This document shows, in pieces, positions 527 to 58,592 of a stretch of 58,677 bases of DNA. The stretch is from assembly GCA_938003915.1 (NCBI GenBank), contig CALKWV010000050.1, positions 1-58,677 on the forward strand, read 5' to 3'. Origin of the DNA: an uncultured Bacillota bacterium. Its GTDB lineage: Bacteria > Bacillota > Clostridia > Caldicoprobacterales > UBA3941. The notes beneath the pieces are model-generated. The model had not been told where the DNA came from and did not search any database. It worked only from the letters and a program-made list of their open reading frames with translations. The number at the start of each line of letters is the position of its first letter. Position 1 is the first letter of the stretch. Position numbers and translations under genes: made by a program.

Positions 527-630
527 AATGTGCAGAGTAGGCATTGTGCGTTAAGTGTTAGGGGATGGGATGTTGCCCCTAAACGAAGGAAGAACTCTTC
601 CGCGATGCAATGCCGCATCCGCTGCCACAT
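527..630 (+). promoter_or_regulatory. THF (tetrahydrofolate) riboswitch
   Basis: AGAGUAG..GCGUUAAGUGU..AUGGGAUGU..AACGAAG..GCG..GCAUCCGCU matches, block by block, the Eubacterium siraeum THF aptamer as I remember it. It sits directly upstream of a folate ECF S-component gene. Confidence 0.9.
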
Positions 631-10320: not shown

Positions 10321-10551
10321 AATAGCAACCCCCCACATTACGCGGGGGCTTGCTATTCCCATAATGCCGTTCTCTACTATTATTAGACCCGCCTCCTGGC
10401 AGGTGGGTGCCCTATTGCCCAATTCTGCCTTCCCCGCTAGGGGCATGACATCCTATGGGCAAACCCGAGCTCCCAATGTCATACTGTGGGTTAATAACAA
10501 TAGATTAACGAACATTACAGGATTATCAGCTAAATTTCTCATCTTACTGTA
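10321..10551 (-). ncRNA. Unassigned structured sRNA with a 6S-like rod architecture
   Basis: It has its own promoter and a 3' GC-rich hairpin (10321-10357). Arms 10488-10521 and 10358-10390 form a closing helix of about 31 bp (with G-U pairs and bulges). The GC-rich interior has a large internal loop and complementary UUGCCCA/UGGGCAA segments. It is a GC island in AT-rich DNA, and the only ORF over it has no SD. Confidence 0.5.
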
Positions 10552-24536: not shown

Positions 24537-24800
24537 TAAAAAAAGCCTTACATCCCAGGGACAAGGACGTAAGACTCCGCGGTACCACCTTGCTTTTTGC
24601 TTTTATAGCAATAATAACTATAAAAGCAAACACTCGAAATCTTTAACGGGATTAGCGTTTCAGCCTACTAATGGTTCAGCTGAAATGTTCAGAAGCGACC
24701 TTCCATTTTCTCCAACCGGGGAAATCTCTCAGCCAGTGGATTTCCTTTTCTGTCGGCCTTGAAAATGTACTCCTCTTCCTCATCACATTAATATGAAATT
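24537..24800 (-). promoter_or_regulatory. T-box leader, Val specifier (GUA), with terminator
   Basis: T-box sequence AAGGUGGUACCGCGG (24577-24592). Specifier loop …UUAGUAGGC with GUA at 24666-24668. Terminator cuuacgucc…gggauguaagg followed by a U7 run (24537-24576). Confidence 0.9.
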
Positions 24801-41371: not shown

Positions 41372-41408
41372 AAATTGAAAACAAACTAAATAATAATTAG
41401 TATCTTAA

Positions 41409-41582
41409 TGCGGTTAGAGGTGCATCTTTTATGAGTAAGTTTCCGGAGAATGCGGAATTCTGTGAAGGGACCCAAAGGAAAAGATGCCGAAAGGTATAAA
41501 TGTCCGCAATTTATACCTTGGTCCTAGGGTGAACAACTCTAGGATTGTCATCAAATGTTTATTTGATGGAGAGCTAACTGCT
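41409..41582 (+). promoter_or_regulatory. Lysine riboswitch (L-box)
   Basis: P1 GCGGUUAG/CUAACUGC. Conserved AGAGGUGC, GAGUA, GAAGGG, GCCGAAAGG, CUUGGUC, GUCA and GAUGGAGAGCU blocks occur in the canonical order. Confidence 0.85.
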
Positions 41583-41616
41583 TTCGTATACCTTGTTCAT
41601 TTTACAGGTGTGACGA

Positions 41617-42737: not shown

Positions 42738-43967
42738 TTGCATATGATAAAAATAATTATCCACGGATGCAATGGTAAGATGGGGCAAGTAGTAGCGTCC
42801 ATGGCTATTAAACAGCCTGACATCCAAGTAGTGGCCGGCGTGGATAGGGTTACTGATGCCTGTGACAATCCATTCCCAGTATATCCATCATTGGACCAAT
42901 GTCCTGAGGAGTGTGATGTCATTATCGACTTTTCTCTACCTCAGGCCCTGCCCTCCTTATTGGATGCAGCTGTCAAGCGAAATTGCGCCCTAGTTATCGC
43001 AACTACAGGTTTTAATCAAAAAGAGCAGGAAACAATTGAAGCATACAGCAAAAGGATACCAATTTTACAAGCTGCCAATATGTCTGTAGGTATTAATTTG
43101 ATGTACCAACTTATTCAAAAAGCAGCACAAGTGCTTGGAGATTCCTTTGATATCGAAATTATTGAAAAGCATCATAACCAAAAAATTGATGCTCCCAGTG
43201 GAACTGCCTACGCTTTGGCGGATGCCATAAATGAAGTATTCCTTAATTCAAAAAACTATATATATGGAAGGCATTCCAAGAATGATAGGAGATCACCTTC
43301 TGATATGGGCATCCACGCTATACGAGGGGGTACCATAGTAGGGCAGCATACAGTATTATTTGCCGGAAATGATGAAACTATTGAAATAGAGCATACTGCA
43401 TATTCTAAGCAAATATTTGCCGTAGGAGCCCTTAGGGCTGCACGATATATGGCAAATAGAGCTCCTGGGTTATATAACATGAAAAATGTACTAGATGATA
43501 GAAGTCCCGTTACCAATATTACAACCCAGGACAATATTATTCTAGTATCTATTCGCAATGCACCTGCTAAGCTCAATACCATTGCTAATATATATAGAGA
43601 ATTTGCTGGAGAAAACAATTACTTGGAGTTAATTAGTCAAACTTCTCCTGCAGATAGAATGAGTGATATTGCCTTTGCCCTATCAGCGGATAATCTCCAA
43701 AAAGCAGAAAACTTTTGTAAAGATCTAGCATCAAAGGACAATGGCATCTCCATAAAATTGGACACCAATATTATAAAGATGTCCATTGAAGGATTAGGCT
43801 TAGAGCAACAACCAAGAATAGCTGCCACAGTCTTTGAATTGTTCACCAAGCATAATATACCCATTAAAGCTTCGGTTACATCTAACAAAAAAATCGGTTG
43901 TTTTATCAATAAAATCCATGAAAAACAAGCTATGGATATGTTAATCGATGAATTCGGTTTACAATAA
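42738..43967 (+). CDS. dapB: 4-hydroxy-tetrahydrodipicolinate reductase fused to a C-terminal aspartokinase-type ACT domain pair
   Basis: Residues 1-255 are DapB (GCNGKMG, EKHHNQKIDAPSGTA, IRGGTIVGQHTVLFAG). Residues about 258-409 (DNA 43509-43967) resemble the aspartokinase regulatory ACT repeats (…IIKMSIEGLGLEQQPRIAATVFELFTKHNIPIKASVTSNKKIGCFI…). Confidence 0.85.
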   Translation: MHMIKIIIHGCNGKMGQVVASMAIKQPDIQVVAGVDRVTDACDNPFPVYPSLDQCPEECDVIIDFSLPQALPSLLDAAVKRNCALVIATTGFNQKEQETIEAYSKRIPILQAANMSVGINLMYQLIQKAAQVLGDSFDIEIIEKHHNQKIDAPSGTAYALADAINEVFLNSKNYIYGRHSKNDRRSPSDMGIHAIRGGTIVGQHTVLFAGNDETIEIEHTAYSKQIFAVGALRAARYMANRAPGLYNMKNVLDDRSPVTNITTQDNIILVSIRNAPAKLNTIANIYREFAGENNYLELISQTSPADRMSDIAFALSADNLQKAENFCKDLASKDNGISIKLDTNIIKMSIEGLGLEQQPRIAATVFELFTKHNIPIKASVTSNKKIGCFINKIHEKQAMDMLIDEFGLQ

Positions 43968-44063: not shown

Positions 44064-45401
44064 TTAAAGTGCTATCTTAAAGATAAACAATACTGCAAGA
44101 ACATACATTAGAGGTTGAACCTTCTTAGCATTACCGGAGAGAACTTTCAGAATAACCCAGGATAGTATACCAAATACTATTCCTTCAGCAATGCTGCTTG
44201 TAAAAGGCATCATTATAATTGCCAAGAAAGCAGGTAAACCTTCTGTGAAATCATTAAAGTCAATCTTGGTAATGGCAGTTACCATAAACAATCCTACTAC
44301 AACCAAAGCAGGTGCAGTGGCAAAGGAAGGGATTGCCGTAAAGATAGGAGCAAAAATCAGAGCCACAACAAACAATACACCAGTAGTAAGTGCAGTAAGT
44401 CCAGTTCTTCCACCTTCTGCTACTCCTGATGCACTTTCTACGTAGCTGGTAACTGTAGAAGTACCTAAGGAAGCACCTGCAACAGTACCTATAGCGTCTG
44501 CCAATAGCGCTTCTTTTGCTCTAGGTAGTTTTCCGTCCTCATCAAGGAGATTTCCTTTACTTGCCACACCAATAAGAGTTCCTACAGTATCAAATATATC
44601 AACAAACAGGAATGAAAACATAATAACGAAGAATTCAAATCCTAACTTAAATGCTCCAGCAAAATCAAATTTAAAAAATGTAGGAGCTACTGAAGGTGGT
44701 AGAGAAATAAGCTGTAAGGATGGAATAAGGTCAAATCTTCCTGCATCTGGATCAACAGTATATAGTCCAGTCAACTGACATATAATACCTAAAATATAGG
44801 TACCTAAAATACCCCAAAGAAGCGCACCTTTTACTCCCTTATGAGTCATATAAACAATAGCTATTAATCCAATAAGGGATAAAATTACAGTAATATCGGT
44901 TAAGTCTCCAAGCCCTATCATAGTTCCTTCATTTGGTACAACTATACCAGCGTTTTGCAATCCAATAAGGGCAATAAATAGTCCTATTCCCACAGTAATA
45001 GCATATTTTAAGTTTTCAGGCATACCATTAACTATTGCTTCTCTAAATCTAAAAAATGACAAAAGAATAAATATTATACCTTCAATAAGTATAGCAACTA
45101 ATGCAATTTCCCATGAATATTGAGATGCAACAATTGCAAAAAAAGCATTAAGTCCCATCCCTGATGCCAGGGCAACAGGATAGTTAGCCAAAAATGCCAT
45201 GGCAATAGTAGCTATAGCCGCAGATAGAGCCGTTGCAGTGAAAACAGCACCTCTATCCATGCCAGCAGAAGATAAAATGTTTGGATTTACAACTAGGATA
45301 TAAGCCATAGTCATAAATGTTGTAATACCGGCCATGATCTCAGTTCTTACATTGGTGTTGTGTTCTTTTAACTTAAATGTGCGTTCAAAGAAACCATTCA
45401 T
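44064..45401 (-). CDS. NCS2/AzgA-family purine permease (guanine/hypoxanthine PbuG/PbuO-like)
   Basis: The N-terminus MNGFFERTFKLKEHNTNVRTEIMAGITTFMTMAYILVVNP is diagnostic of the AzgA/PbuG family. It is preceded by a guanine riboswitch. Confidence 0.85.
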   Translation of the reverse strand: MNGFFERTFKLKEHNTNVRTEIMAGITTFMTMAYILVVNPNILSSAGMDRGAVFTATALSAAIATIAMAFLANYPVALASGMGLNAFFAIVASQYSWEIALVAILIEGIIFILLSFFRFREAIVNGMPENLKYAITVGIGLFIALIGLQNAGIVVPNEGTMIGLGDLTDITVILSLIGLIAIVYMTHKGVKGALLWGILGTYILGIICQLTGLYTVDPDAGRFDLIPSLQLISLPPSVAPTFFKFDFAGAFKLGFEFFVIMFSFLFVDIFDTVGTLIGVASKGNLLDEDGKLPRAKEALLADAIGTVAGASLGTSTVTSYVESASGVAEGGRTGLTALTTGVLFVVALIFAPIFTAIPSFATAPALVVVGLFMVTAITKIDFNDFTEGLPAFLAIIMMPFTSSIAEGIVFGILSWVILKVLSGNAKKVQPLMYVLAVLFIFKIAL

Positions 45402-45502: not shown

Positions 45503-45541
45503 ATATTGGAAAGCTTTAAAGCTTCTCAATATAACACAATT

Positions 45542-45612
45542 CACACATAGCCTATGGCAGTTACGGCTGCCTGGTAGAAACTCCCGAACCAATTATCAGG
45601 ATTATATGAGTG
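45542..45612 (-). promoter_or_regulatory. Purine riboswitch, guanine type (C at the specificity position)
   Basis: CACUCAUAUAAUCCUGAUAAUUGGUUCGGGAGUUUCUACCAGGCAGCCGUAACUGCC..GGCUAUGUGUG. P1, the UAUAAU J1/2, GUUUCUAC J2/3 and the CCGUAA L3 are all present. Confidence 0.85.
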
Positions 45613-45629
45613 CTATTTGTTACATTGAT

Positions 45630-45723: not shown

Positions 45724-46974
45724 CTATTTCCCAATATCTGTCCTAAAGTTCATTCCTTTAAAGCTTATATTATCAATATTAGCGTATATTTTATCTCTTG
45801 CTTCTTCTAAAGAATTTGCCAATGCAGTTACAGATAGCACCCTTCCTCCAGCTGTTAGCAGCTTATCCTTTTTATACTCGGTTCCATTATGAAATAAGAT
45901 TATATCCTTTTCTAGCTTGTCTTTTATACTAATTTCAAAACCCTTTTCAAATTCCCCGGGATAGCCTTCAGATGTTAACACTACAGTCATACAGCTTTGC
46001 TGGCTCCATTTAATATCTGAAGGCTTTAGTGATGAACCTATGGTCTTTTCAAAAAGCTCAACTATATCAGATTCCAGTCTAGGGATAAGGACTTCTGTTT
46101 CCGGATCTCCGAACCTTACATTGAACTCTAAAACTTTAGGGTTACCTTGAACTATCATAAGGCCAACATATAGGATGCCTTTGTAATTTAAGTTTTCCTT
46201 ATTTAACCCATCCTCTATTCTATCAAGCACTTCTTCCTTTATTCTCTTTTCCAAATCTTTGGTAAGCAATGGACTTGGAGAAAAAGCTCCTACTCCCCCC
46301 GTGTTTGGTCCTAGATCTCCATCATATATTTTCTTATAATCCTTAGCACTTTCCATAGGAATTATTCTATTATCCGTTACAAAGCATAGTAGAGACATTT
46401 CAATTCCATCTAAATACTCTTCAATTACCACCCTATTTCCTTGCTCACCAAACTTCTTATCTACTAATATTTCCTCAAGTATCTTTAATGCCTCTTCTTT
46501 TGTGTCTACTATTTCTACACCCTTCCCTGCACATAGGCCATCAGCCTTGATTACCAGCGGATAGGAAAAACTATTTAAATCTTGGCAGGCATCCTTATAA
46601 CTTTCATAGCTCTGATATTTTGCCGTTGGGATATCATATTTTTTCATAAATTCCTTGGCGTAGCTTTTACTGCCTTCCAATCTGGCGCTTTTTTTGTCTG
46701 GTCCAAATATTCTCAGTCCTTTCTCTTGGAACCTGTCGACAATTCCCAGAACTAGTGGTTCCTCAGGACCTACTACAGTTAAATCAATGTTGTTTTTTAG
46801 GGCGAATTCTACCAAAGCATCTATATCGTTTGCTTTTATATCTACATTTTCTGCAACTAGCCTGGTACCTCCATTGCCAGGAGCACAATACACTTTTTCT
46901 ACTTCTTTTGACTGGGAAATCTTCCAGCACAAGGTATGTTCTCTTCCTCCGCTGCCTACGACTAGTACTTTCAC
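45724..46974 (-). CDS. purD: Phosphoribosylamine--glycine ligase
   Basis: Full-length ATP-grasp PurD (MKVLVVGSGGREH…). GTG start. Confidence 0.95.
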   Translation of the reverse strand: MKVLVVGSGGREHTLCWKISQSKEVEKVYCAPGNGGTRLVAENVDIKANDIDALVEFALKNNIDLTVVGPEEPLVLGIVDRFQEKGLRIFGPDKKSARLEGSKSYAKEFMKKYDIPTAKYQSYESYKDACQDLNSFSYPLVIKADGLCAGKGVEIVDTKEEALKILEEILVDKKFGEQGNRVVIEEYLDGIEMSLLCFVTDNRIIPMESAKDYKKIYDGDLGPNTGGVGAFSPSPLLTKDLEKRIKEEVLDRIEDGLNKENLNYKGILYVGLMIVQGNPKVLEFNVRFGDPETEVLIPRLESDIVELFEKTIGSSLKPSDIKWSQQSCMTVVLTSEGYPGEFEKGFEISIKDKLEKDIILFHNGTEYKKDKLLTAGGRVLSVTALANSLEEARDKIYANIDNISFKGMNFRTDIGK

Positions 46975-46986
46975 TCTTAATACCCC

Positions 46987-48513
46987 CTAGTGTTTAAAGT
47001 GCCTAATGCCAGTAAACACCATGGCAATATTGTGCTTATTTGCCTCTTCAATTACTTCTCCATCCCTTATGGAGCCTCCAGGTTGTATTATGGCTGTTAC
47101 ACCCCATTGGCCTAGCAGCTCAATAGAATCTTTAAACGGGAAAAATCCGTCAGAGGCCAAGACGCTTCCCTTTACCTTATCCTTTGCTCTTTCTACTGCA
47201 TTTTGTACTGCCCAGAAGCGGTTTACCTCGCCTCCACCTATGCCAATGGTACCTTTATCCTTAGCAATAACAACCCCATTGGATTTTAGGTGTTTAACAG
47301 CCTTCCAGGCAAAGATCAGATCTTCCATTTCCTCTTCTGTAGGCTTTCTTTCTGTCACCACTTTCATATCATCTAAAAAGTTAATTACGTCCTTGTCCTG
47401 AACTAAAATACCACCAGATATGTTTTTAACTTCCAGACCCTTGTCCTCCTTCTTTATAGCCCCCAGTTCTATAAGCCTTAAGTTTTTCTTTTTAGTTAAA
47501 ATTTCCAAGGCTTCATCTGTGAAGGAAGGCGATATGATTACCTCTAAAAAGATTTTAGCCATTTCCTTGGCAACTTCCCCATCAACTTCCCTGTTCGTTG
47601 CAATTATTCCACCATATATAGATTCTTTATCGCATTCATAGGCTTTTAAATAGGCTTCTAATAGATTTTCTCCGCTTCCTATACCGCAGGGATTTGCATG
47701 TTTTACGGCAACTACAGTGGGCTGGTCAAACTCTCTTACCATATCAATAGCAGCATTACCGTCGTTTATATTATTGAAGGACAATTCCTTTCCATGAAGT
47801 TTTTTCCCAAGGGCAATACTACCTTCAGTTGGATCTGGGCTAACATAGAATGCAGCTTTTTGATGGGGATTTTCACCATATCTTAAATTGTCCTTTAGCT
47901 TATATCCCAGAGTCAAATAAGCGGGGAATTCTACTTCTTCTAGCTCATTAAAATATTTAGATATGAGGGCATCATAATAAGCAGTATAGTTAAAAACTTT
48001 TCTTGCTAGATAAAGGCGGGTCTCTAGGCTAGTATCATTACTTTCTTTAAGCTCCGACAATACTTTGGGATAATCTTCAGGATCTATTATTACTGTTACG
48101 TACTTATAGTTTTTGGCTGCAGCTCTTATCATGGAAGGGCCACCTATATCTATATTTTCTATAATTTCATCATGGCCTTTTCCTTTTAACATTGTTTCTT
48201 CAAAGGGATATAGATTATTAACCACCATATCTATGGAAGATATATTCATATCCTCCAATGTTTTTACATGCTTCTCATCGTCCCTTTTATAAAGAATTCC
48301 TCCGTGGATATAGGGGTTTAAAGTTTTTACCCTTCCATTTAAAATTTCAGGAAAGTCGGTAACCTCTTCAATTTCTACAACATCAATACCGGCATTTTTA
48401 AGCTCTGCAAAAGTACCCCCTGTAGAAATTATTTGCCAGCCTAACTCCACCAATTCCTTTGCAAAATCCACTATTCCTCTCTTATCAAAAACACTAATCA
48501 ATGCTCTTTTCAA
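46987..48513 (-). CDS. purH: Bifunctional AICAR transformylase / IMP cyclohydrolase
   Basis: Start placed at TTG 48513 (AAGGAG 8 nt upstream), giving MKRALISVFDKRG, the usual PurH N-terminus. Confidence 0.95.
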   Translation of the reverse strand: MKRALISVFDKRGIVDFAKELVELGWQIISTGGTFAELKNAGIDVVEIEEVTDFPEILNGRVKTLNPYIHGGILYKRDDEKHVKTLEDMNISSIDMVVNNLYPFEETMLKGKGHDEIIENIDIGGPSMIRAAAKNYKYVTVIIDPEDYPKVLSELKESNDTSLETRLYLARKVFNYTAYYDALISKYFNELEEVEFPAYLTLGYKLKDNLRYGENPHQKAAFYVSPDPTEGSIALGKKLHGKELSFNNINDGNAAIDMVREFDQPTVVAVKHANPCGIGSGENLLEAYLKAYECDKESIYGGIIATNREVDGEVAKEMAKIFLEVIISPSFTDEALEILTKKKNLRLIELGAIKKEDKGLEVKNISGGILVQDKDVINFLDDMKVVTERKPTEEEMEDLIFAWKAVKHLKSNGVVIAKDKGTIGIGGGEVNRFWAVQNAVERAKDKVKGSVLASDGFFPFKDSIELLGQWGVTAIIQPGGSIRDGEVIEEANKHNIAMVFTGIRHFKH

Positions 48514-48518
48514 TGTCC

Positions 48519-49139
48519 TCACTCCTTATTCTTTATTCTTACTAATCTTCCTTTTATAGATAATTTGTTTTCGCAAAATAATTTTATAGCTTGTACTAAT
48601 AACTTGTGTTCTACTTCAAGAACCTTCTTTTTTAAGGTGTCTATGGTATCATTTTCATCAACCCTAACTACCTCTTGGAGTATTATGGGGCCTGTATCAG
48701 TACCTTCATCAACAAAATGGACAGTAGCTCCAGTATATTTAACTCCATATTCAAGTACTGCCCTGTGAACCCTATCTCCGTAATAACCTTTGCCACAAAA
48801 ACTTGGTATTAGGGATGGATGGATGTTTATAATTTTATTTTTGTATTCTTCTATAAATTCCTTTGATAATATCCTTAAATAACCTGCTAATACTACTAAA
48901 TTCACATCTCTCTTCTTTAGCTCGCATAATATTCTTTGATCATAAGCAGCATCATAATCTTTTGGATCTAAAAACATAGATTCAATATTGGCCTTTTGGG
49001 CCCTTATAAGGCCATGGGCATCTTTCCTATTTGATATAACTATCTTTATTCTTCCATTTATAATTCCTTTATCTATCCCATCTATAATAGCTTGTAGATT
49101 AGTCCCATTGCCGGATATAAGCACCCCTATGTTTACCAT
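48519..49139 (-). CDS. purN: Phosphoribosylglycinamide formyltransferase
   Basis: [22 protein letters not shown] and [13 protein letters not shown] motifs. Confidence 0.92.
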
Positions 49140-50164
49140 GATAGTACTACTCCTTCATTACCCCTTCTTACATCTCCCAGCACATAATATTTTTCATTCT
49201 TATCCTTTAGATGCTGCTCTAAATGTGTCAGCTCTTGCTTATCAACAACCAACACCATTCCAACTCCCATGTTGAAGGTCCCATACATTTCATGAGTTTC
49301 AACCTGCCCCCATTTCTGCAATAAATTAAATATTTCAGGTGTTTGGATTACAGATACATCTATATAGGCAGCTAAACCCTCCGGAAGCATTCTAGGAATG
49401 TTTTCTATAAAGCCTCCTCCTGTTATATGACTAATACCTTTTATATTGACCTTAGCTACTAAGTCTGTTATAACATCTGCATATATTCTGGTAGGCTTAA
49501 GGAGTTCTTCTCCTAGAGTAGTTTTTAGCTCTGGTACATAGGTGTCCACATCCATTTTTTCCTTTTCAAATACAATTTTCCTTACCAGAGAATATCCATT
49601 GCTATGAATTCCACTTGAAGGTAGCCCTATAACAACATCCCCTTCCTTTATATCAGCGCCGGTTATCAAATTCTTTTTGTCAACAACACCTACGCAAAAA
49701 CCTGCTATATCGTATTCTCCATCAGCATAAAAACCAGGCATTTCCGCAGTTTCACCGCCTATTAAGGCGCATCCTGCCTTTATACAGCCATTGGAGACAC
49801 CTTCAACAATCTCCGCCATCTTTTCTGGTTCCAGCTTGCCCGTGGCAATATAATCCAAGAAAAACATGGGTTTTGCTCCTTGGCACAAAATATCATTTAC
49901 ACACATTGCAACACAATCTTCCCCAACGGTATCATGCTTGTCCATCATAAAGGCGATTTTTAGTTTGGTTCCCACTCCATCGGTTCCTGATACCAGAATG
50001 GGCTCTTCATAAGCCTTAATATCCAGCTGAAAAAGTCCTGCAAAGCCTCCAATATCCGACAAAACTCCTGGAGTATGGGTTTTGCTAATAAACTTTTTAA
50101 TTAGCTGAACCTGTTTATAGCCAGCTTCTTTGTCAACCCCCGCGTCCTTGTATGTTAGTGACAT
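49133..50164 (-). CDS. purM: Phosphoribosylformylglycinamidine cyclo-ligase (AIR synthetase)
   Basis: Full-length PurM (YKDAGVD…, [18 protein letters not shown]). Confidence 0.95.
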
Positions 50165-50290: not shown

Positions 50291-51625
50291 CTACACTGGG
50301 TATCCTCCAGTAAAACAGCCTGTGCAAAAGCCGTCATCTCCTCCAATGGCCTTGATAAGCCCCTCCAAGGAAATATAGTATAAAGAATCAGCTCCTAACT
50401 GCTTTCTAATATCTTCAACAGTCATACTTTTGGCCATTAAAAATTCTTCATTGGGAGTATCCATGCCCAGATAACAGGAATGGGTTACTGGAGGCGAACT
50501 TATTCTGACATGGACTTCTTTAGCTCCGGCTTTTTTTAATAATTCTATAATTCTCTTTATTGTAGTTCCTCTTACTATGGAATCATCCACCAACACAACC
50601 CTTTTTCCATTTACGTTATCCTTTAAAACATTTAACTTTATTTTTACCCCTTGCTCTCTTAGCTCCTGAGTTGGCTGAATAAAGGTTCTGCCTACATATC
50701 TATTTTTTATCAAACCATCCCTGTAGGGGATTTTGGATTCTTCCGCATAGCCTACGGCTGATACTATTCCTGAGTCTGGTGCTCCAATTACTATATCTGC
50801 ATCTACAGGGCTTTCTCTGGCCAACTGCCTTCCTATTTCAATTCGTGCTGTATATATACTTCTATTGTCCACCTGACTATCTGGCCTTGCAAAGTATATA
50901 TACTCAAATAGGCAGTGGCTGACCTTGCCTTTCTTTTGACAAACAGTCCTTACTCCATTTTCATCTATGACTATCATTTCTCCAGCATCAATATTTCGAA
51001 TAATGTCTGCTCCAATGGTATCGAAAGCACAGGTTTCAGAGGCTATTATATAGCCATCCTTAATCTTACCTAAGACCATAGGTCTTATGGCATGAGGATC
51101 CCTTGCGGCAATTAGGCTGCTGGCATTCATCATAACTATGCTATAGGAGCCCTTTATATCATCCAAAGCCTTCATAATGGCCTCTTCTAACCTGTCCTTA
51201 TGATATCTTGCTATTAAGTTGGCAATAACCTCTGCATCTAAAGTGCTTTGGAATATTACGCCCTTATCCTCTAATTCATCCCTTAGTGCCTTTGCATTTA
51301 CAATACTTCCATCAAGGCAAAGAGCAAGTGCTCCTTTTCTATAGCCCACAACTAAGGGTTCTACATTGGTTTTATCCTTACTGTCATGGCTTGTAGCATA
51401 CCTAACATGACCTATAGCAATATTTCCTATAAGTCTTTCTATTACATCCTTTGAAAATACTTCATTGACTAATCCCTGCCCCTTATGGTAATCAACAAAG
51501 CCGTTGTTGTTGACTGCTATACCTGTACTGGCTTGGCCTCTATGCTGCAGCGCATATAGACCATAATAGGCAATTTGGGATGCATCCACTCTATTTGGGC
51601 TGTATATTCCAATTATTCCGCTCAA
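50291..51625 (-). CDS. purF: Amidophosphoribosyltransferase with a non-canonical N-terminal nucleophile (Ser instead of Cys)
   Basis: TTG start lies 6 nt after GGAGGG. The PRTase motif VVLVDDSIVRGTT and four Fe-S Cys are present. The N-terminus is M-SGIIGIY instead of M-CG(I/V)xGI. Confidence 0.9.
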   Translation of the reverse strand: MSGIIGIYSPNRVDASQIAYYGLYALQHRGQASTGIAVNNNGFVDYHKGQGLVNEVFSKDVIERLIGNIAIGHVRYATSHDSKDKTNVEPLVVGYRKGALALCLDGSIVNAKALRDELEDKGVIFQSTLDAEVIANLIARYHKDRLEEAIMKALDDIKGSYSIVMMNASSLIAARDPHAIRPMVLGKIKDGYIIASETCAFDTIGADIIRNIDAGEMIVIDENGVRTVCQKKGKVSHCLFEYIYFARPDSQVDNRSIYTARIEIGRQLARESPVDADIVIGAPDSGIVSAVGYAEESKIPYRDGLIKNRYVGRTFIQPTQELREQGVKIKLNVLKDNVNGKRVVLVDDSIVRGTTIKRIIELLKKAGAKEVHVRISSPPVTHSCYLGMDTPNEEFLMAKSMTVEDIRKQLGADSLYYISLEGLIKAIGGDDGFCTGCFTGGYPV

Positions 51626-51636
51626 TATGTTCCCTC

Positions 51637-52119
51637 CTATTGTTCTTGGATGGTTTTGTCCATCTCAGCTACCTCTTCAGCCAATCCCTTTTTATATTCC
51701 TTTAGTTTTTCCTTTAGCTCAGGATACTTAAGTGACAACATTTGTACTGCTAGCAGGGCTCCATTCTCCCCTCCATCTATGGCAACAGTCGCTACCGGAA
51801 CCCCTTTGGGCATTTGAACTACAGATAAAAGGGAGTCTAGTCCATCCATTGTTGAAGATTTTGCCGGAATACCTATAACTGGAAGGTGGGTAACGCCAGC
51901 CATTACCCCGGCTAAATGAGCTGCCTTGCCTGCAATAGCTATAATGACTTCAATCCCTCTTTCTTCTGCCTTTTTTGCAAATTCAAAGGCGGTATAGGGA
52001 GTTCTATGGGCTGATATAACCCTTAGTTCATAATCCACCCCAAATTTGTCTAATATCCCTGTTACCTTATCTCCTAAATGCTTATCGGATATACTTCCCA
52101 TAACAACAGCTACCTTCAA
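51637..52119 (-). CDS. purE: 5-(carboxyamino)imidazole ribonucleotide mutase
   Basis: MGSISD, SAHRTP and AGKAAHLAGVMAG (class I-like 70s loop). TTG start after GGAGGG. Confidence 0.92.
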   Translation of the reverse strand: MKVAVVMGSISDKHLGDKVTGILDKFGVDYELRVISAHRTPYTAFEFAKKAEERGIEVIIAIAGKAAHLAGVMAGVTHLPVIGIPAKSSTMDGLDSLLSVVQMPKGVPVATVAIDGGENGALLAVQMLSLKYPELKEKLKEYKKGLAEEVAEMDKTIQEQ

Positions 52120-52130
52120 TTTAGACCCTC

Positions 52131-55100
52131 CTATTTAAAATATTTAACTCCAGATTCAAATATATTGTGTATTCCCTTTATAGGAACATTTTTGTAAATA
52201 TCTTTACCCATTCTATCTATGGCGCTTACAGTTCCTAATATCCTTCCATCAGGACTGGTAAGAGAATCTATAGCTAAATCAGAACCTGTAGGATTAATAT
52301 CCACAAACTGAGTGGCTATTTGCCCCTTGGCTCCCAGGTCTGCTTTTCCTAAAACTACCCTACCTTCTCTAGTTGCAACTGGTACTGAATAAATATCACC
52401 TACATTCATTCCACTCATCCAGGGAGAAAGGTTGGATACTACTTTGACATCTACTATGGTTGATATAAAGTTGCCCCATAAATTGCTTGTAATAGATGTT
52501 GAATTTTGGTCTGGCTTTGCAATGTATCCTTTTTCTATAAGCCCCAGCTTAATTAAAGCATTTAGTCCACTACCGATTCCTAAAACCAGACCGTCCTTTG
52601 TAGTTATATGCTCATTTAGAACTTCTTTGAGCCTTGGATGGTTAAATAATATATTTATTAGCTTTCCTCCACCTTCAGGCTCGTTGCCCAAGATAAATCC
52701 ATTAGCAAAAACTAGTATCTGGCACTGGCTAATCCTTTTTGCTAATTCATCTATGGACTCTTGGATTTTATCCTTAGTTAGTCCCTTAAATACAAAGGTC
52801 TCAACCTCTGCACCAGCCTCTTTAAACCTAAGCTCAGCATCGTATTCCCCATGAGTTCCTGAAAATATAGGTATTAATACTTTTGGTTTTGTTATGCTTG
52901 TTGCTTTTGTCCTCTTTATCTGGTTTCCTTCCCGATATAGAATTTCATCAGCTTCCACTTTTTCTTTATAAATAGGAAATACATCCTTGAGCGGGCTTTG
53001 CCATTGTTCCATAATTTCCTTGAGGCTTATGGAAACCTCACCTAATCTTATCTCTTCTCTTTCTACAGTTCTACCTACAATAGAGTAGTCTATGCCATCA
53101 AGCAGAGATGCTAAATCTTCTCCCTCTTTTATTTCCAACACAATTGATCCGTATAAAGGTTTATAAATCACGCTTAATATATCAGCATCAAATTCAAAGC
53201 CTATTCCGTTGCCACAGGCCATTTCAGAAATACTTCTTGCAATACCTCCAAATTTTACAGCAGAACTTGATAATACTATGCCTTTATCTACTAATTCTTT
53301 TATCCTGGTATAATTTTTCTTTAGCTGTTCAAAGTCCACCAATCCATTTTCATCAATATTTAGATTTATGACTACAACCTGGGAATTAGGCTCTTTAAAC
53401 TCTTTGGAAACTACATTTTTCACATCCTCTGTAACCACAGCAAAGCTTATAAGAGAAGGGGGTACGTTTATATCTTCAAAGGTACCGCTCATGCTGTCCT
53501 TTCCCCCAATACTAGGTATGTCCAAATTCTTTTGAACCATGAAGGCACCTAATAGGGCAGAAAAAGGTTTGCCCCACTTAGTTGGATCCTCACCTAACCT
53601 TTCAAAATATTCCTGGAAGGTTAGCCTTGCCTTTGTAAAATCTCCTCCTAAAGCTACTATCTTTGCTAGGGATTCTATAACTGCATAGTATCCTCCATGA
53701 AAAGGACTCCATTGGCATAGGCTTGGATCATAACCACAAGTCATTATGGAACAGGTGCTTGTCTTGCCATCTAAAACTGGCAACTTTGCAACCATTCCCT
53801 CCTGGGGAGTTATCTTATTTTTCCCTCCTAGAGGCATTAAAACAGTTCCTGAGCCATAGCTGCTGTCAAAGCTCTCTATTAACCCTTTTTGGCTAGCAGT
53901 GTTAAGATTGCTTATATTTCTAAGGAAATTATCTTTTAAGTCTCCATCCTTGATATACTCCGGATTCCTCTTTAGATATATATCCTCATCTGGTAGTTGA
54001 ACTCTTACTTTGGCTTTATTTCTAATTCCGCCGCTATTTAGGAAATCGCTTTCTAAATCTAATACTGTCTTTCCTCGCCATGTCATTGTAACCCTGTTAT
54101 TATCCGTTACTTCTGCAACTATTGATCCTTCAAGGTCTTCTCTCTCTACAAGCTCCATAAATTTATCTAAGTTCTTCCTATCTATTAACACTGCCATTCT
54201 TTCTTGGGACTCGGAGATAGCTATTTCCCAATCCTTAAGACCTGGATACTTTAGAGGAACTTTATCCAAATTAATATCTAATCCATCTGCCAGCTCTCCT
54301 ACAGCAACAGCGACTCCACCAGCTCCAAAATCGTTGCATTTCTTTATAAGCCGTGTTGTCTCCTTATTTCTAAAAAGCCTTACAATCTTTCGTTCCACTA
54401 TAGGATTTCCTTTTTGTACATCTGTACCCCTTTTTTCTAGAGCCTCTTCAGTATGTTCCTGGGATGAGCCTACAGCAGCACCAATTCCATCCCTTCCAGT
54501 TCTACCACCTATTAATACCACTACATCCCCCGCTTCTGGAGTACCCCTTAATACCCAATCCTTGGGTACGGCAGCCACTAGTGCCCCTAGTTCCATCCTC
54601 TTTGCAGCAAAGCCTTCATGGTAATACTCATTAACATATCCTGTAGCACTGCCTATCTGATAGCCGTAGGATGAGTAGCCTTCCATAGCCGTTCTGGTTA
54701 TCTGCCTTTGTGGTAGCTTTCCAGGTATTGTATCCTCATATTTGTGCCTTGGATCTGCAGCCCCGGTTATTCTCATAGCCTGATATACATATGCCCTTCC
54801 AGACAAAGGATCCCTAATGGCACCACCAAGGCAGGTTGCTGCACCACCAAAGGGTTCTATTTCTGTAGGATGGTTATGGGTTTCATTTTTAAACATTAAA
54901 AGCCATTTTTCAGTCTTTCCATTGTGATCCACGTCTACCTCTATGGAAGCAGCATTTACTTCATCTGTTTCTTCTTTGTCTTCCAGCAATCCCTTCTTCT
55001 TTATTTCTTTCATATTTATAGTTGCCATATCCATAAGGGTAATGGGATTTGGGTTATCTCCATAAACATATTGTCTTGATGCTAAGTATTCTTTTAATGC

Positions 55101-55838
55101 TTGTTCAAAAACTTCCCTTAATTTGCCTTCCTCTATTTCCACATGGGTTATTTCAGTATTAAAGGTTTTGTGCCTACAATGATCAGACCAATAGGTATCT
55201 ATTACCTTTAATTCAGTAACGGTTGGATTTCTGTGAGCATTTTTAAAATATTCCTGACAGAATTGGAGATCCTCTAAATCCATAGCTAGTCCCAAAGATT
55301 TTAACAATTTTTCTAGGCCTTCTTTATCCAAATCTATAAAGCCATCTACAATTTCAACATCATCCGCAATATCCTCTTCTTCTAAAAAGCTTTCTTTATC
55401 AAGGGGAATTTCTCTCGATTCAGTAGGATTGATGTAGTAGGATTTTATTTTTTCAAGATCTGTGTCAGAAATGTTTTTAAGGATTATATACTTAGAATGC
55501 TGGATTTTTACCTTATCATATCCAAGATAGTTATTAACCAATTCATTGGCAGCAGCTTCCCTTTGGTTGTATTGTCCTCCAATATTTTCAACCCTAAAAG
55601 CTTTTTCATCCTTATCAATTGGGGGCATATCTTCGTATAAGTAATCTATGGCTGGTTCATATAGAACCATTTCAATGATATTGTCTATTTCATTTTTCTT
55701 TGCACCATAAATTTCATAAGAGTTTATAACTCTAACTCTTTCAAGGGTCTCTATGCCTAAATAGTCTTTAAATTCAGTGTACAATTCTCTCGCTTCTGAA
55801 TTTACAGCACTCTTTTTTTCGATCAATATTCTTTTCAT
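52131..55838 (-). CDS. purL: Phosphoribosylformylglycinamidine synthase, single-chain clostridial type, with a degenerate glutaminase domain
   Basis: 1235 aa. The synthetase core is conserved (…NETHNHPTEIEPFGGAATCLGGAIRD…). The C-terminal domain of about 250 aa aligns to the PurQ-like glutaminase but lacks the Cys/His/Glu triad. Confidence 0.95.
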   Translation of the reverse strand: MKRILIEKKSAVNSEARELYTEFKDYLGIETLERVRVINSYEIYGAKKNEIDNIIEMVLYEPAIDYLYEDMPPIDKDEKAFRVENIGGQYNQREAAANELVNNYLGYDKVKIQHSKYIILKNISDTDLEKIKSYYINPTESREIPLDKESFLEEEDIADDVEIVDGFIDLDKEGLEKLLKSLGLAMDLEDLQFCQEYFKNAHRNPTVTELKVIDTYWSDHCRHKTFNTEITHVEIEEGKLREVFEQALKEYLASRQYVYGDNPNPITLMDMATINMKEIKKKGLLEDKEETDEVNAASIEVDVDHNGKTEKWLLMFKNETHNHPTEIEPFGGAATCLGGAIRDPLSGRAYVYQAMRITGAADPRHKYEDTIPGKLPQRQITRTAMEGYSSYGYQIGSATGYVNEYYHEGFAAKRMELGALVAAVPKDWVLRGTPEAGDVVVLIGGRTGRDGIGAAVGSSQEHTEEALEKRGTDVQKGNPIVERKIVRLFRNKETTRLIKKCNDFGAGGVAVAVGELADGLDINLDKVPLKYPGLKDWEIAISESQERMAVLIDRKNLDKFMELVEREDLEGSIVAEVTDNNRVTMTWRGKTVLDLESDFLNSGGIRNKAKVRVQLPDEDIYLKRNPEYIKDGDLKDNFLRNISNLNTASQKGLIESFDSSYGSGTVLMPLGGKNKITPQEGMVAKLPVLDGKTSTCSIMTCGYDPSLCQWSPFHGGYYAVIESLAKIVALGGDFTKARLTFQEYFERLGEDPTKWGKPFSALLGAFMVQKNLDIPSIGGKDSMSGTFEDINVPPSLISFAVVTEDVKNVVSKEFKEPNSQVVVINLNIDENGLVDFEQLKKNYTRIKELVDKGIVLSSSAVKFGGIARSISEMACGNGIGFEFDADILSVIYKPLYGSIVLEIKEGEDLASLLDGIDYSIVGRTVEREEIRLGEVSISLKEIMEQWQSPLKDVFPIYKEKVEADEILYREGNQIKRTKATSITKPKVLIPIFSGTHGEYDAELRFKEAGAEVETFVFKGLTKDKIQESIDELAKRISQCQILVFANGFILGNEPEGGGKLINILFNHPRLKEVLNEHITTKDGLVLGIGSGLNALIKLGLIEKGYIAKPDQNSTSITSNLWGNFISTIVDVKVVSNLSPWMSGMNVGDIYSVPVATREGRVVLGKADLGAKGQIATQFVDINPTGSDLAIDSLTSPDGRILGTVSAIDRMGKDIYKNVPIKGIHNIFESGVKYFK

Positions 55839-55928: not shown

Positions 55929-55952
55929 TCCAGAACCTCTAGGTATAGTTTC

Positions 55953-56021
55953 GCTCATAGTCAAATGATTTACGTTCATTTTGTAAAAACGTCTCAACCC
56001 TCTTTTGAGACTTATATGAGC
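55953..56021 (-). promoter_or_regulatory. Purine (guanine-type) riboswitch between purC and purL
   Basis: GCUCAUAUAAGUCUCAAAAGAGGGUUGAGACGUUUUUACAAAAUGAACGUAAAUCAUUUGACUAUGAGC. P1/P2/P3 and C74 are present. It begins 12 nt after the purC stop. Confidence 0.75.
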
Positions 56022-56032
56022 AAAACATTCAA

Positions 56033-56719
56033 CTAATCTTCAAACATCAATTTTTCTAGTTCAAGAGGTTCTACATATTTTCCATCCTTATAGACACGCA
56101 TATTGCCTCCAGAAATTTCATCTATGAGCCCAATATGACCATCTTCTCCAATTCTGCCAAACTCAAACTTTATATCGTATAATTCCAGTCCCTTTCTTTC
56201 AAGCTCGTCTTTTACTAACTTTGCAATTCTTTTAGTTAGCTCTTTGACTTCCTCATACTCTTCCTTAGTCATAATATCTAACATGACAAGACCGTCCTCT
56301 GTAATCAATGGATCATTTCTTTGGTCATCTTTCAAAGTTACTTCAATGTATCCATCAAGAGGCTGCCCTTCCTTCGCATAGGCTCCATAGCGGCGAATAA
56401 AGCTGCCCACAGCCCTATATCTAACTATTACTTCAATACCATTTCCAAATAGTTTTGCAGGCATTACTGTCATTGTGTTATTGTCTAAATCTGCATCTAT
56501 ATAATGAGTTGGAATATTTAGTTCCTTAAGCTTTTCGAAGAAAAATTTAGACATTTTCAAGTTTGATTTTCCCATGCCCTCAATCTTAGAAACCACAGTA
56601 TTTCCACCTGGATCAAATACTCCGTCCTCTCCTGTTACATCATCTTTAAACTTAAAAAGAAAATTTCCATCTTCCAATTTGTAAATATCCTTAGTCTTGC
56701 CCTTGTATACCAATTCCAT
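56033..56719 (-). CDS. purC: Phosphoribosylaminoimidazole-succinocarboxamide synthase
   Basis: Full-length SAICAR synthetase (…LVYKGKTKDIY…, short Firmicute form). SD GAGGTG. Confidence 0.95.
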   Translation of the reverse strand: MELVYKGKTKDIYKLEDGNFLFKFKDDVTGEDGVFDPGGNTVVSKIEGMGKSNLKMSKFFFEKLKELNIPTHYIDADLDNNTMTVMPAKLFGNGIEVIVRYRAVGSFIRRYGAYAKEGQPLDGYIEVTLKDDQRNDPLITEDGLVMLDIMTKEEYEEVKELTKRIAKLVKDELERKGLELYDIKFEFGRIGEDGHIGLIDEISGGNMRVYKDGKYVEPLELEKLMFED

Positions 56720-56745: not shown

Positions 56746-56782
56746 CCCAGTCTGGTAGATATGCGAAACCTAGCCGACTGGG
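56746..56782 (-). terminator. Terminator-like hairpin of the tandem riboswitch platform
   Basis: CCCAGUCGGCUAG/CUACCAGACUGGG. The 5' arm overlaps the 3' end of the ykkC-type aptamer. The trailing U-tract (UAUAAUAAUUUCU) is weak. Confidence 0.5.
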
Positions 56783-56870
56783 CTTTTCTCCCTTCGGTGT
56801 AATACTATCAAAAGATAATATCTGTACCGCTCGGACCAGACGAGATTCATTCTCCGGAACCCTAGGTACA
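56770..56870 (-). promoter_or_regulatory. ykkC-family subtype 2 aptamer (PRPP riboswitch-like)
   Basis: ACCUAGGGUUCCGG…CUGGUCCGAGCG…ACACCGAAGGGAGAAAAGCCCAG follows the ykkC fold blocks (CUAGGGUUCCG, GGUCCGAG, ACAC.G..GGGA.AAAAGCCC). It has ACCG where the guanidine-I class has ACGG. It sits immediately 3' of a guanine aptamer and 5' of purC. Confidence 0.6.
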
Positions 56871-56875
56871 CTTTC

Positions 56876-56944
56876 GCTCATAGCCGAATGATTTACGGTC
56901 ATTTTGTAGAAACGTCTCAACCATATTATGAGACTTATATGAGC
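56876..56944 (-). promoter_or_regulatory. Purine riboswitch, guanine type (5' member of the tandem)
   Basis: GCUCAUAUAAGUCUCAUAAUAUGGUUGAGACGUUUCUACAAAAUGACCGUAAAUCAUUCGGCUAUGAGC. Canonical L2 AUAUGG, J2/3 GUUUCUAC, L3 CCGUAAA and C74. Confidence 0.85.
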
Positions 56945-56967
56945 TAAATATTAACTTGTACATCTTA

Positions 56968-57205: not shown

Positions 57206-58592
57206 ATGAAAACTAAAGACTATTAAATGGATACTATTAGAGTAGCAGTCCCTAGTATTATTGAACATATTGCTAATGTTGTAGTAGGCTTTGTGGATAC
57301 TATTATGGTAGCTAAATTAGGAACAATAGCTACTGCAGCAGTAGGTATTAATTCCACAATTACCTGGTTTCTCATGGCATTTTCTACCTTATTTGCTGTG
57401 GGTACAACTGTGCAGGTAGCTCAGAGTATTGGTGCTAACAATCACCAACGAGCTAAAAGAGCATCTATTAATGGACTATCAGGTGGTTTTATACTATTTG
57501 CCATTATATTTATAGTGATGTATTCTCTGTCTCCCTACATACCCAAATGGCTTGGAGCAGAAAGAGCAATCCTCCCAGACGCTGTTTCTTATTTGAGAAT
57601 TTGGACCCTTGCCATTGTTCCCATGTTCCTAGGCAGGATTGCCTCCAGTATCTTCAGAGGAAGCGGAAACACTAAAGTGCCAATGATAGTTGCTTTTTTT
57701 TACTAATATCTTAAATGTAATAGGGAATTTTCTCCTCATTTATGATACCCGATTTATTGCTATTCCTTTAATAAATACTGAAATCAAAGTCTGGGGGGCC
57801 GGCCTTGGAGTAACTGGCGCTGCCATCTCCACCTCCCTAACCAATGCATTAGGTGGAATAATTATGTTATATTTATTGTTTAATGGATCTCAAATAATAA
57901 AGTTAAACTTGGGGAACTTATTTAAATTTGAAAAAGTGCTCTTAGAGCATATATTTAATACTGGTGCACCTGCTACTGGTCAAGATTTAATTACTAACAT
58001 GGGACAGGTTCTATATCAAAAAATGGTAGCAAGCCTTGGCACAATCCAGGTGGCCGCTCACCATTTGGCAACTACAGCTGAATCTCTATCATATATGCCA
58101 GCATCGGGATTCTCCGTAGCAGCCACTACACTGATAGGCCAATCTTTAGGAGCAGGAAAAAAGCAAGAAGCAGAAAACTTTGGCAGAGTTTGTTTTATAC
58201 TATCACTCTTTGCTGGATTATTCAGTGGACTTATGCTATATATCTTTCCAAGGCAATTAATGTCCTTATTTTCCAAGGATATTGCAGTTATAGAAGAAGG
58301 GGTTGGTGCTCTTAGAATAATTGCCTTTGTCCAGCCACTATTTAATGCTTCCATAGTTCTAACTGGTGTTTTAAGGGGAGCAGGAGAAACAAAAGTTCCA
58401 TTATATGCTTCATTAGGTGGTATGTGGTTTGTTAGACTGATATCAGCTTATATATTTATAAATGTATTAAACTGGGGACTAAAAGGGGTTTGGCTAGGAA
58501 TGCTGCTAGATCTGGCTATGAGATTTGTGATTGTATTTTATAGATATATAAAAAAGGACTGGCTAAATGCAAAAATAATTGTAGACGATTAA
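57206..58592 (+). pseudogene. MATE family efflux transporter, disrupted (in-frame TAA at 57224 and a frameshift in a T8 run near 57693-57700)
   Basis: Two adjacent ORFs (57227-57706 and 57690-58592) together make one MATE protein. The junction reads …GNTKVPMIVAFF|TNILNVIGNFLLIY. The only good SD (GAGGTG, 57187-57192) serves ATG 57206, which runs into a TAA 6 codons later, in frame with ATG 57227. Confidence 0.6.

Follow-up and report, generated by a model that had tools for sequence, protein, structure and literature searches.

Does an amidophosphoribosyltransferase (PurF) that lacks its catalytic N-terminal cysteine still depend on glutamine? The question arose from a 58,677-nucleotide stretch of DNA, referred to here as the window, from an uncultured Bacillota bacterium (GCA_938003915.1, contig CALKWV010000050.1). 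The initial annotation noted that the purF gene at 50291..51625 (-) encodes Ser in place of the Cys1 nucleophile and has lost the HNGN oxyanion motif, and inferred that the enzyme cannot hydrolyse glutamine in the canonical way. We found that each of its sequence statements holds and that the inference is supported, although the emphasis changes in two respects: the universal hallmark of the family is the replacement of Asn by Asp and not that of Cys by Ser, and the change is not confined to PurF.

The purF gene and its catalytic residues

The open reading frame encodes 444 amino acids and begins with a TTG codon at 51623-51625, with a GGAGGG Shine-Dalgarno sequence at 51632..51637 (-), 6 nt upstream. 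Codon 2 (51620-51622) is AGC, which encodes Ser. In order to determine whether a mis-called start might conceal a propeptide ending in Cys, as an alternative to a true loss of the nucleophile, the upstream sequence was read in frame. A stop lies 15 codons back (*DGQNHPRTIGGNI-L-S), and between it and the TTG there is no ATG, GTG or TTG and no Cys codon, while relatives have in-frame stops 1-3 codons before their start. A sequencing or assembly error at codon 2 was likewise rejected, since contigs from four unrelated metagenomic runs (faeces, sludge, anaerobic digester and compost) are identical across the start codon and codon 2, the sequence is present at 98-100% of sampled words in 19 runs from at least 12 studies, and five related assemblies carry TTG followed by either AGC or AGT, that is, by synonymous Ser codons. 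We found nothing in favor of an artefact, and consider that explanation refuted.

The protein scored 497.1 bits against the TIGR01134 amidophosphoribosyltransferase model (cutoff 350) over residues 3-443, and Pfam identified GATase_6, GATase_7 and Pribosyltran domains. The closest match in sequence was Bacillus subtilis PurF (PDB 1AO0; see also 1GPH), with an E value of 5.6e-139, and an AF2 model (pLDDT 90.7) gave the same protein as the best fold match by Foldseek (1ao0_A, TM 0.92, E value 3.9e-59), predicting the two-domain architecture of an Ntn glutaminase domain and a type I PRTase domain. Relative to this B. subtilis-type [4Fe-4S] enzyme, the window protein has no propeptide, Cys1 is Ser, HRGQEGAG is HRGQASTG and LAHNGNLVN is LCLDGSIVN. 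The HRGQAS motif lies at 51527..51544 (-), where the Arg and Gly are kept but the acidic residue after HRGQ (E. coli Asp29) is replaced by Ala. The CLDGS motif lies at 51305-51319, with the GAT codon for Asp105 at 51311..51313 (-) in place of the oxyanion-hole Asn (E. coli Asn101, B. subtilis Asn102); the adjacent Gly106 is kept. The PRTase half (50294..50929 (-)) is intact. The sequences VLVDDSIVRGTT, SHCLFEY, HSCYLG and FCTGCF are all present, the PRPP motif DDSIVRGTT is at 50561-50587, and the four Fe-S ligands Cys238, Cys384, Cys434 and Cys437, which are invariant or nearly so in the alignment, are contained in motifs at 50900-50920, 50465-50482 and 50312-50329.

Conservation of the substitutions across the clade

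To determine if the substitutions were a strain-specific lesion, the protein was aligned with its homologs. All of the 120 best homologs carry Ser or start within the conserved N-terminal motif, none has Cys, and all that reach the oxyanion column have Asp or Glu. The clade is broad and monophyletic. Ser was found in 131 of 131 clade members with this position aligned, and Asp (130) or Glu (3) in 133 of 133, while the 64 canonical relatives had Cys in 64 and Asn in 64. Among representatives of clusters at 50% identity, the residue pairs were C/N in 130 and S/D in 7. Several second-shell residues of the glutamine site that are nearly invariant in canonical enzymes vary in the clade, namely the acidic residue after HRGQ (Glu in 63 of 64 canonical sequences, but mostly Val, Ile, Ala or Met in the clade, with 7 of 133 keeping Glu), the Thr equivalent to E. 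coli Thr76, and the second Asn of HNGN. A strain-specific lesion was rejected.

The N-domain (50930..51625 (-), residues 1-232) has nevertheless been retained under purifying selection. In five pairwise comparisons, dN/dS was 0.04-0.08 overall, 0.07-0.10 in the N-domain and 0.01-0.06 in the C-domain, and the ratio of N-domain to C-domain entropy was 1.13 in the clade and 1.17 in canonical relatives. Relaxed selection on the domain was therefore rejected.

The strict invariance of Ser in this sub-clade raises the possibility that Ser1 is a replacement nucleophile, as in Ntn hydrolases of the penicillin G acylase type, and that the enzyme remains glutamine-dependent with Asp105 taking part in a re-tuned active site. 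A start codon always sits directly before the Ser, so that Met removal would expose it, and Arg73, Tyr74 and Asp127 (E. coli numbering), which bind glutamine or couple the two sites, are mostly retained (128, 122 and 129 of 133), which could mean that a ligand still binds there. However, E. coli PurF mutants in which Cys1 was changed to Ser or Ala have no detectable glutamine-dependent activity but still use NH3 (Mei & Zalkin 1989, as summarised in PMC3261824), although those are engineered single mutants, while the change described here is natural, fixed in a clade and coupled to the Asn to Asp and other changes. In addition, a carboxylate in the oxyanion hole, where the side-chain donor Asn would normally lie, is anti-catalytic for amide hydrolysis. 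In the wider family Asp is universal, but position 1 is Cys, Ser, Gly or Ala (C/D 38, S/D 15, G/D 4, A/D 3), and the members with Ala or Gly have no possible side-chain nucleophile, yet sit in pur operons. Ser is thus not universally required and is probably not a nucleophile, and we consider this alternative unlikely. A further alternative, that the N-domain now hydrolyses a different amide or nitrogen donor to feed the channel, would also be in keeping with the conserved Ser and Asp, the retained amino-acid-binding Arg and Asp and the purifying selection, but the gene context suggests no candidate substrate and the relatives with Ala or Gly argue against any covalent catalysis. It appears more doubtful still.

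The purine operon and the neighbouring PurL

The gene occupies the purF position of a purC-purL-purE-purF-purM-purN-purH-purD operon. The first gene (56033..56719 (-)) is purC-like, matching TIGR00081 at 122 bits, which is below the 190-bit cutoff, although SAICAR_synt is reported in syntenic loci. It is followed by purL (52131..55838 (-)) and purE (51637..52119 (-); TIGR01162, 203 bits), and downstream of purF by purM, purN, purH and purD (45724..50164 (-)), which matched TIGR00878, TIGR00639, NF002049 and TIGR00877, all above their cutoffs. The operon leader (56773..56962 (-)) contains a purine riboswitch aptamer (RF00167, 77.6 bits) followed by a ykkC-type (Guanidine-I model) aptamer (RF00442, 66.8 bits against a gathering score of 63), and a second purine riboswitch (RF00167, 69.2 bits) lies between purC and purL at 55938..56039 (-). 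The same gene order was seen in relatives.

Interestingly, the adjacent PurL has also lost its glutaminase residues. It is a single-chain FGAM synthase (TIGR01857, 1535.8 bits against a cutoff of 1057) whose C-terminal GATase_5 domain (residues 984-1234, 144 bits) lacks the Cys-His-Glu triad. It has LGIGSGLNA at 52557..52583 (-) where canonical enzymes have LGICNGFQA, replacing the nucleophile Cys with Gly, and GTVSAIDR at 52212..52235 (-) where canonical enzymes have GKMGHSER, replacing His with Ala and Glu with Asp. A search of PDB sequences with the window's own PurL C-domain found nothing at E <= 0.01, and the columns were therefore anchored to Salmonella PurL (1t3t) by way of the canonical homolog from another locus. 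The triad is lost in 16 of 16 loci of this clade and in 0 of 12 canonical loci. The two losses are not obligatorily linked, however, since one distant lineage with an Ala1/Asp PurF keeps an intact PurL triad. FGAM synthase homologs lacking glutaminase catalytic residues are known among the herpesvirus vGAT pseudoenzymes, homologs of PFAS (PMC7605207), but the viral proteins are non-metabolic, while the PurL described here keeps a high-scoring synthetase part within a pur operon.

GuaA from a close relative, whose PurF is 86% identical to that of the window, lacks about 94 residues that include LGICYG and HPE, the catalytic part of its GATase domain, and about 30 protein clusters share this form. 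No other amidotransferase genes that might serve as an internal control were found in the window or the fetched loci, using tblastn for glmS and Pfam on about 40 window ORFs. The loss of the glutaminases of PurL and, in the relative, GuaA with no replacement nucleophile suggests that the cell already supplies NH3 to this pathway, and is explained more simply by the use of NH3 than by a different amide donor.

It is also conceivable that the operon gene is a redundant or regulatory paralog and that a canonical purF elsewhere does the real work. A Ser-bearing PurF paralog, Mlab_0150, has been described beside the canonical Mlab_0202 in the archaeon Methanocorpusculum labreanum (Brown et al. 2011; PMC3261824), where it is a recent duplicate that was judged not to be the real purF. 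Although a canonical purF, purQ or other ammonia-delivering partner could not be excluded without whole genomes of the clade, the variant is the only purF in a complete, riboswitch-controlled pur operon in every locus examined, its PRTase domain has a very low dN/dS, the clade is broad and monophyletic, and the PurL of the same operon, which also lacks its triad, would require a second purL or purQ as well. We regard this explanation as improbable.

A purine pathway with probably reduced dependence on glutamine

Taken together, these data suggest, with reasonable though not full confidence, that this is the operon's working amidophosphoribosyltransferase and that it no longer depends on glutamine, the PRTase half converting PRPP to phosphoribosylamine with free ammonia. 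That NH3 is the nitrogen donor is inferred from sequence and not from enzyme assay. The Ntn half, having lost glutaminase chemistry, would be kept as the structural and regulatory partner of the PRTase domain, as part of the Fe-S cluster environment, and probably as the ammonia channel. Amidotransferases in general can use exogenous NH3 (PMC10526850), and NH3-dependent NAD synthetase NadE, AsnA and ATPPase-only GMP synthetase subunits appear to follow the same biochemical logic, although those enzymes lack the glutaminase domain altogether or belong to other folds, while here the full-length domain is kept and conserved. The Km values for NH4+ of ordinary amidotransferases are high (26-174 mM for GMP synthetases), so efficient use of NH3 may need adaptations that are not apparent from the sequence. 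The sequence is found in compost, sludge, digester, faeces and bovine metagenomes, and habitats such as compost, manure, sludge and digesters are generally likely to be rich in ammonia. We found no published description of this variant of PurF.

The invariant Asp may have a positive role, for example in attracting or deprotonating NH4+ at the mouth of the channel. It is interesting to speculate that the former glutaminase pocket has been converted into an ammonium-capture site, in which the carboxylate, sitting where NH3 is normally released, would attract NH4+, take its proton, and feed neutral NH3 into the existing intramolecular channel to the PRPP site, giving a PurF with physiologically useful affinity for ammonium. 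Together with the triad-less PurL and, in the closest lineage, a GATase-less GuaA, this would define a glutamine-independent route of purine nucleotide synthesis that evolved in ammonia-rich anaerobic niches. This reading is tentative and, on present evidence, more likely wrong than right. If the Asp does build an ammonium site, it would be a new solution for feeding an amidotransferase channel and a template for engineering NH3-dependent variants.

PurF is a textbook Ntn glutamine amidotransferase in which Cys1 is treated as a defining residue of the family. Public sources name some of these proteins amidophosphoribosyltransferase and glutamine-hydrolyzing GMP synthase, and for these sequences the implied glutamine dependence is probably wrong. 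The fixation across a whole bacterial clade of Ser or another residue at position 1 and Asp in the oxyanion hole, with the domain still under selection, is a natural experiment that bears on what the glutaminase domain does beyond hydrolysis, such as the channel, allostery or Fe-S support. The change in PurF appears to be part of a wider retreat from glutamine in the purine pathway of this Tissierellia-related lineage, in which up to three amidotransferases of purine nucleotide synthesis have shed glutaminase function, PurF and PurL in the window's operon and GuaA in a relative, and this points to ammonia as the nitrogen currency of purine synthesis in compost, manure and digester anaerobes.

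Identification of the purF ORF

The ORF at 50291..51625 on the minus strand encodes 444 residues from a TTG at 51625, with the sequence GGAGGG lying 6 nt upstream. When the frame was read upstream of this start, it gave *DGQNHPRTIGGNI; a stop lies 15 codons back, and between it and the TTG there is no ATG, GTG or TTG and no cysteine. A longer N-terminus or a propeptide ending in Cys is therefore impossible. Codon 2 is AGC (Ser). The protein is clearly PurF. It scores 497 bits on TIGR01134, against a cutoff of 350, Pfam finds GATase_6, GATase_7 and Pribosyltran, and the best solved relative is B. subtilis PurF 1ao0/1gph, at E about 1e-139. An AlphaFold model (pLDDT 90.7) superposes on 1ao0 with TM 0.92.

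In the alignment to 1ao0, the residue before G(V/I)xGI is Ser instead of Cys1, HRGQEGAG reads HRGQASTG, and LAHNGNLVN reads LCLDGSIVN, so that the oxyanion-hole Asn is Asp (GAT, 51311-51313). The PRPP motif DDSIVRGTT and the four cluster cysteines are present. The initial annotation, which described a PurF with the catalytic Cys1 changed to Ser and the HNGN motif lost but with the PRTase half and the Fe-S cysteines intact, was correct in every statement it made about the sequence.

Conservation of the substitutions

In order to determine whether the substitutions might be an artefact or a lesion, we examined public sequencing runs and related sequences. The stretch is present at 98-100% of sampled words in 19 public runs from at least 12 studies, covering compost, sludge, anaerobic digester, faeces, bovine and biofilm metagenomes, and contigs from four unrelated runs are identical across the start and codon 2. 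The 120 best homologues are 65-100% identical, and some are named by their sources as Tissierella, Tissierellaceae, Schnuerera sp., Wansuia/Lachnospiraceae NSJ-29 and Clostridiales MAGs. Of these, 118 begin M/L-S-G, or have L-S-G after a short called extension, while the other two start within the conserved motif. All that reach the column have x-(D/E)-G-x in place of HNGN.

We also aligned 133 clade members against 64 canonical relatives. Position 2 is Ser in 131 of 131 aligned members, against Cys in 64 of 64 canonical relatives, and position 105 is Asp in 130 and Glu in 3, against Asn in 64 of 64. These are by far the sharpest discriminating columns. Close relatives use either AGC or AGT for the Ser, which is a synonymous difference, and all of them start at TTG. 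Several relatives have in-frame stop codons 1-3 codons before the start. In one relative (L082:6001-6012) the called start is a GTG three codons upstream, giving M-S-I-L-S-G; if that start is used the conserved Ser would not be N-terminal, but a TTG directly before the Ser is also available. In Tissierella sp. P1 (L057:10001-11326) the purF match is broken into three tblastn pieces and the ORF stops at 337 aa, which points to a frameshift or an assembly error in that genome. In a neighbor-joining tree the variant forms one clade, separate from canonical Clostridia and Bacilli PurF. The change is thus neither an artefact nor a lesion.

Operon context and selection

The gene sits in the purF position of purC-purL-purE-purF-purM-purN-purH-purD, all of which score above the NCBIfam cutoffs except purC, which matches TIGR00081 below its cutoff. 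Upstream of purC (56773-56962, minus strand), a purine riboswitch aptamer is followed at once by a ykkC-type aptamer (Guanidine-I model, 66.8 bits against a 63-bit gathering score), which is the layout of the published guanine plus PRPP tandem gate (PMC5912903). Another purine riboswitch lies upstream of purL, and a third (45528-45629, minus strand) lies in front of a xanthine/uracil-family permease (44064-45401, minus strand) directly downstream of purD. The same gene order recurs in relatives.

Other RNA elements and one odd protein in the window are a lysine riboswitch (41407-41584, plus strand) before asd and a DapB that carries a C-terminal ACT domain (409 aa; 42738-43967, plus strand), a T-box before valS (24560-24792, minus strand), a THF riboswitch at the window start (531-626, plus strand) and a 6S RNA (10352-10526, minus strand). 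Two overlapping ORFs at 57227-57706 and 57690-58592 (both plus strand) match the first 149 and the last 249 positions of the MATE efflux model, and are probably one gene split by a frameshift, either real or an assembly error.

Pairwise dN/dS of purF against five relatives is 0.04-0.08 overall, 0.07-0.10 for the Ntn-like N-domain and 0.01-0.06 for the PRTase domain. The ratio of column entropy between the N- and C-domains is 1.13 in the clade and 1.17 in canonical enzymes. The catalytically altered domain is therefore not decaying.

Changes within the glutamine site

Residues of the glutamine site are given in E. coli numbering, with equivalences and roles that should be taken as presumptive. 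Arg26 and Gly27 are kept in 133 of 133 clade members, Arg73 in 128 of 133, Tyr74 in 122 of 133, plus 8 with Phe, and Asp127 in 129 of 133. In contrast, Cys1 to Ser and Asn101 to Asp are fixed. The acidic residue after HRGQ, which is Glu in 63 of 64 canonical sequences, is mostly Val, Ile, Ala or Met in the clade, where 7 of 133 keep Glu. Thr76, which is Thr in 60 of 64 canonical sequences, varies in the clade, as does the second Asn of HNGN. The catalytic pair is therefore replaced and the second shell is relaxed, while the residues that tie the two domains together are kept.

Loss of glutaminase residues in PurL and GuaA

The adjacent purL (52131-55838, minus strand) encodes a single-chain FGAM synthase that scores 1536 bits on TIGR01857, with GATase_5 matching residues 984-1234. 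We aligned its C-terminal domain with those found next to other PurFs. The 12 loci with canonical PurF have PGGFSxGDEP, LGICNGFQ, SHGEGRF and GKMGHSER, while the window and 10 loci of the variant clade have Gly in place of the Cys, ATKEGR-like sequence, and (S/A)(S/I)xDR in place of GHSER. In the window the Cys is replaced by Gly (LGIGSGLNA, 52557-52583) and the His and Glu by Ala and Asp (GTVSAIDR, 52212-52235). Five more loci of the clade show the same, so that the triad has been lost in 16 of 16 loci of the variant PurF clade and in 0 of 12 canonical loci. The canonical motifs align to LGVCNGCQ and MMPHPER of Salmonella PurL structures, which are the known Cys-His-Glu triad. The residue next to the lost Cys varies (S, A, N, G, E, Q), so no new nucleophile has been installed. 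This dead domain has a dN/dS of 0.10-0.12.

In a contig whose PurF is 86% identical to that of the window (L081), the operon is preceded by guaB and by a guaA of 418 residues (L081:3871-5127). That GuaA keeps only the first 75 or so residues of its GATase domain, reads LGIPTK where LGICYG should be, and lacks the His-Glu segment. About 30 protein clusters share this form, and those that carry a source name are called glutamine-hydrolyzing GMP synthase. The guaA of the window organism itself could not be determined. A full-length (511 aa) GuaA relative, protein P0297, reads LGIGYG and FHLE where LGICYG and FHPE are expected, and looks like a point-inactivated GATase domain.

The wider family

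A profile of six distant Ser/Asp sequences recovered many more relatives. Reading positions 1 and 101 in the 120 listed hits gave 57 Cys/Asn, 38 Cys/Asp, 15 Ser/Asp, 4 Gly/Asp, 3 Ala/Asp and 2 Gly/Asn. The Cys/Asp group, which includes Tepidimicrobium xylanilyticum, Tissierellia MAGs and the protein P0391, has YDG in place of HNG and often lacks Tyr74. Two Cys/Asp loci, from a Schnuerera MAG (L012) and Schnuerera ultunensis ([Clostridium] ultunense DSM 10521; L014), nest inside the Ser/Asp clade in the neighbor-joining tree and also have a dead PurL. Either Cys was regained or Ser arose several times.

The carboxylate at position 101 is thus the constant feature, while position 1 can be Ser, Cys, Ala or Gly. 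Ala and Gly cannot act as nucleophiles, yet these genes sit in pur operons. This result, together with the carboxylate in the oxyanion hole, is the main evidence that weakens the alternative in which Ser1 serves as a nucleophile. One Ala/Asp lineage keeps an intact triad (LGICNGFQ) in a PurD-PurL fusion of 1667 aa (L088:12600-17362, in the operon that carries the Ala/Asp PurF), so the PurF change can occur on its own.

Relation to known enzymes and proposed mechanism

By sequence, fold and context the protein belongs to the PurF family, but it lacks the two features that define a glutamine-hydrolysing Ntn amidotransferase. The nearest precedents are Cys1 mutants of E. coli PurF, a Ser-bearing archaeal paralogue that was dismissed as not the real purF, and enzymes such as NH3-dependent NAD synthetase. 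Full-text literature searches found no description of a natural, clade-wide, operon-encoded PurF without Cys1, nor of triad-less bacterial PurL. The sequence facts are solid and surprising for a textbook enzyme, while the physiology is well indicated but still unproven.

The best-supported reading is a PurF that makes phosphoribosylamine from PRPP and free NH3. This follows from the mutant data for E. coli Cys1, from the general ability of amidotransferases to use exogenous ammonia, and from the parallel, unreplaced loss of glutaminase function in PurL and GuaA. Another amide donor was considered as an alternative, as was the possibility that the operon copy is a redundant paralogue, which could not be excluded directly since no whole genome could be scanned. 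The N-domain is retained, presumably because the PRTase active site, the Fe-S cluster and feedback regulation depend on it. Because Asp never drifts across sequences as little as 35% identical, we infer a positive role for it, and the most attractive role, although this remains a hypothesis, is binding and deprotonating NH4+ at the entrance of the existing channel.
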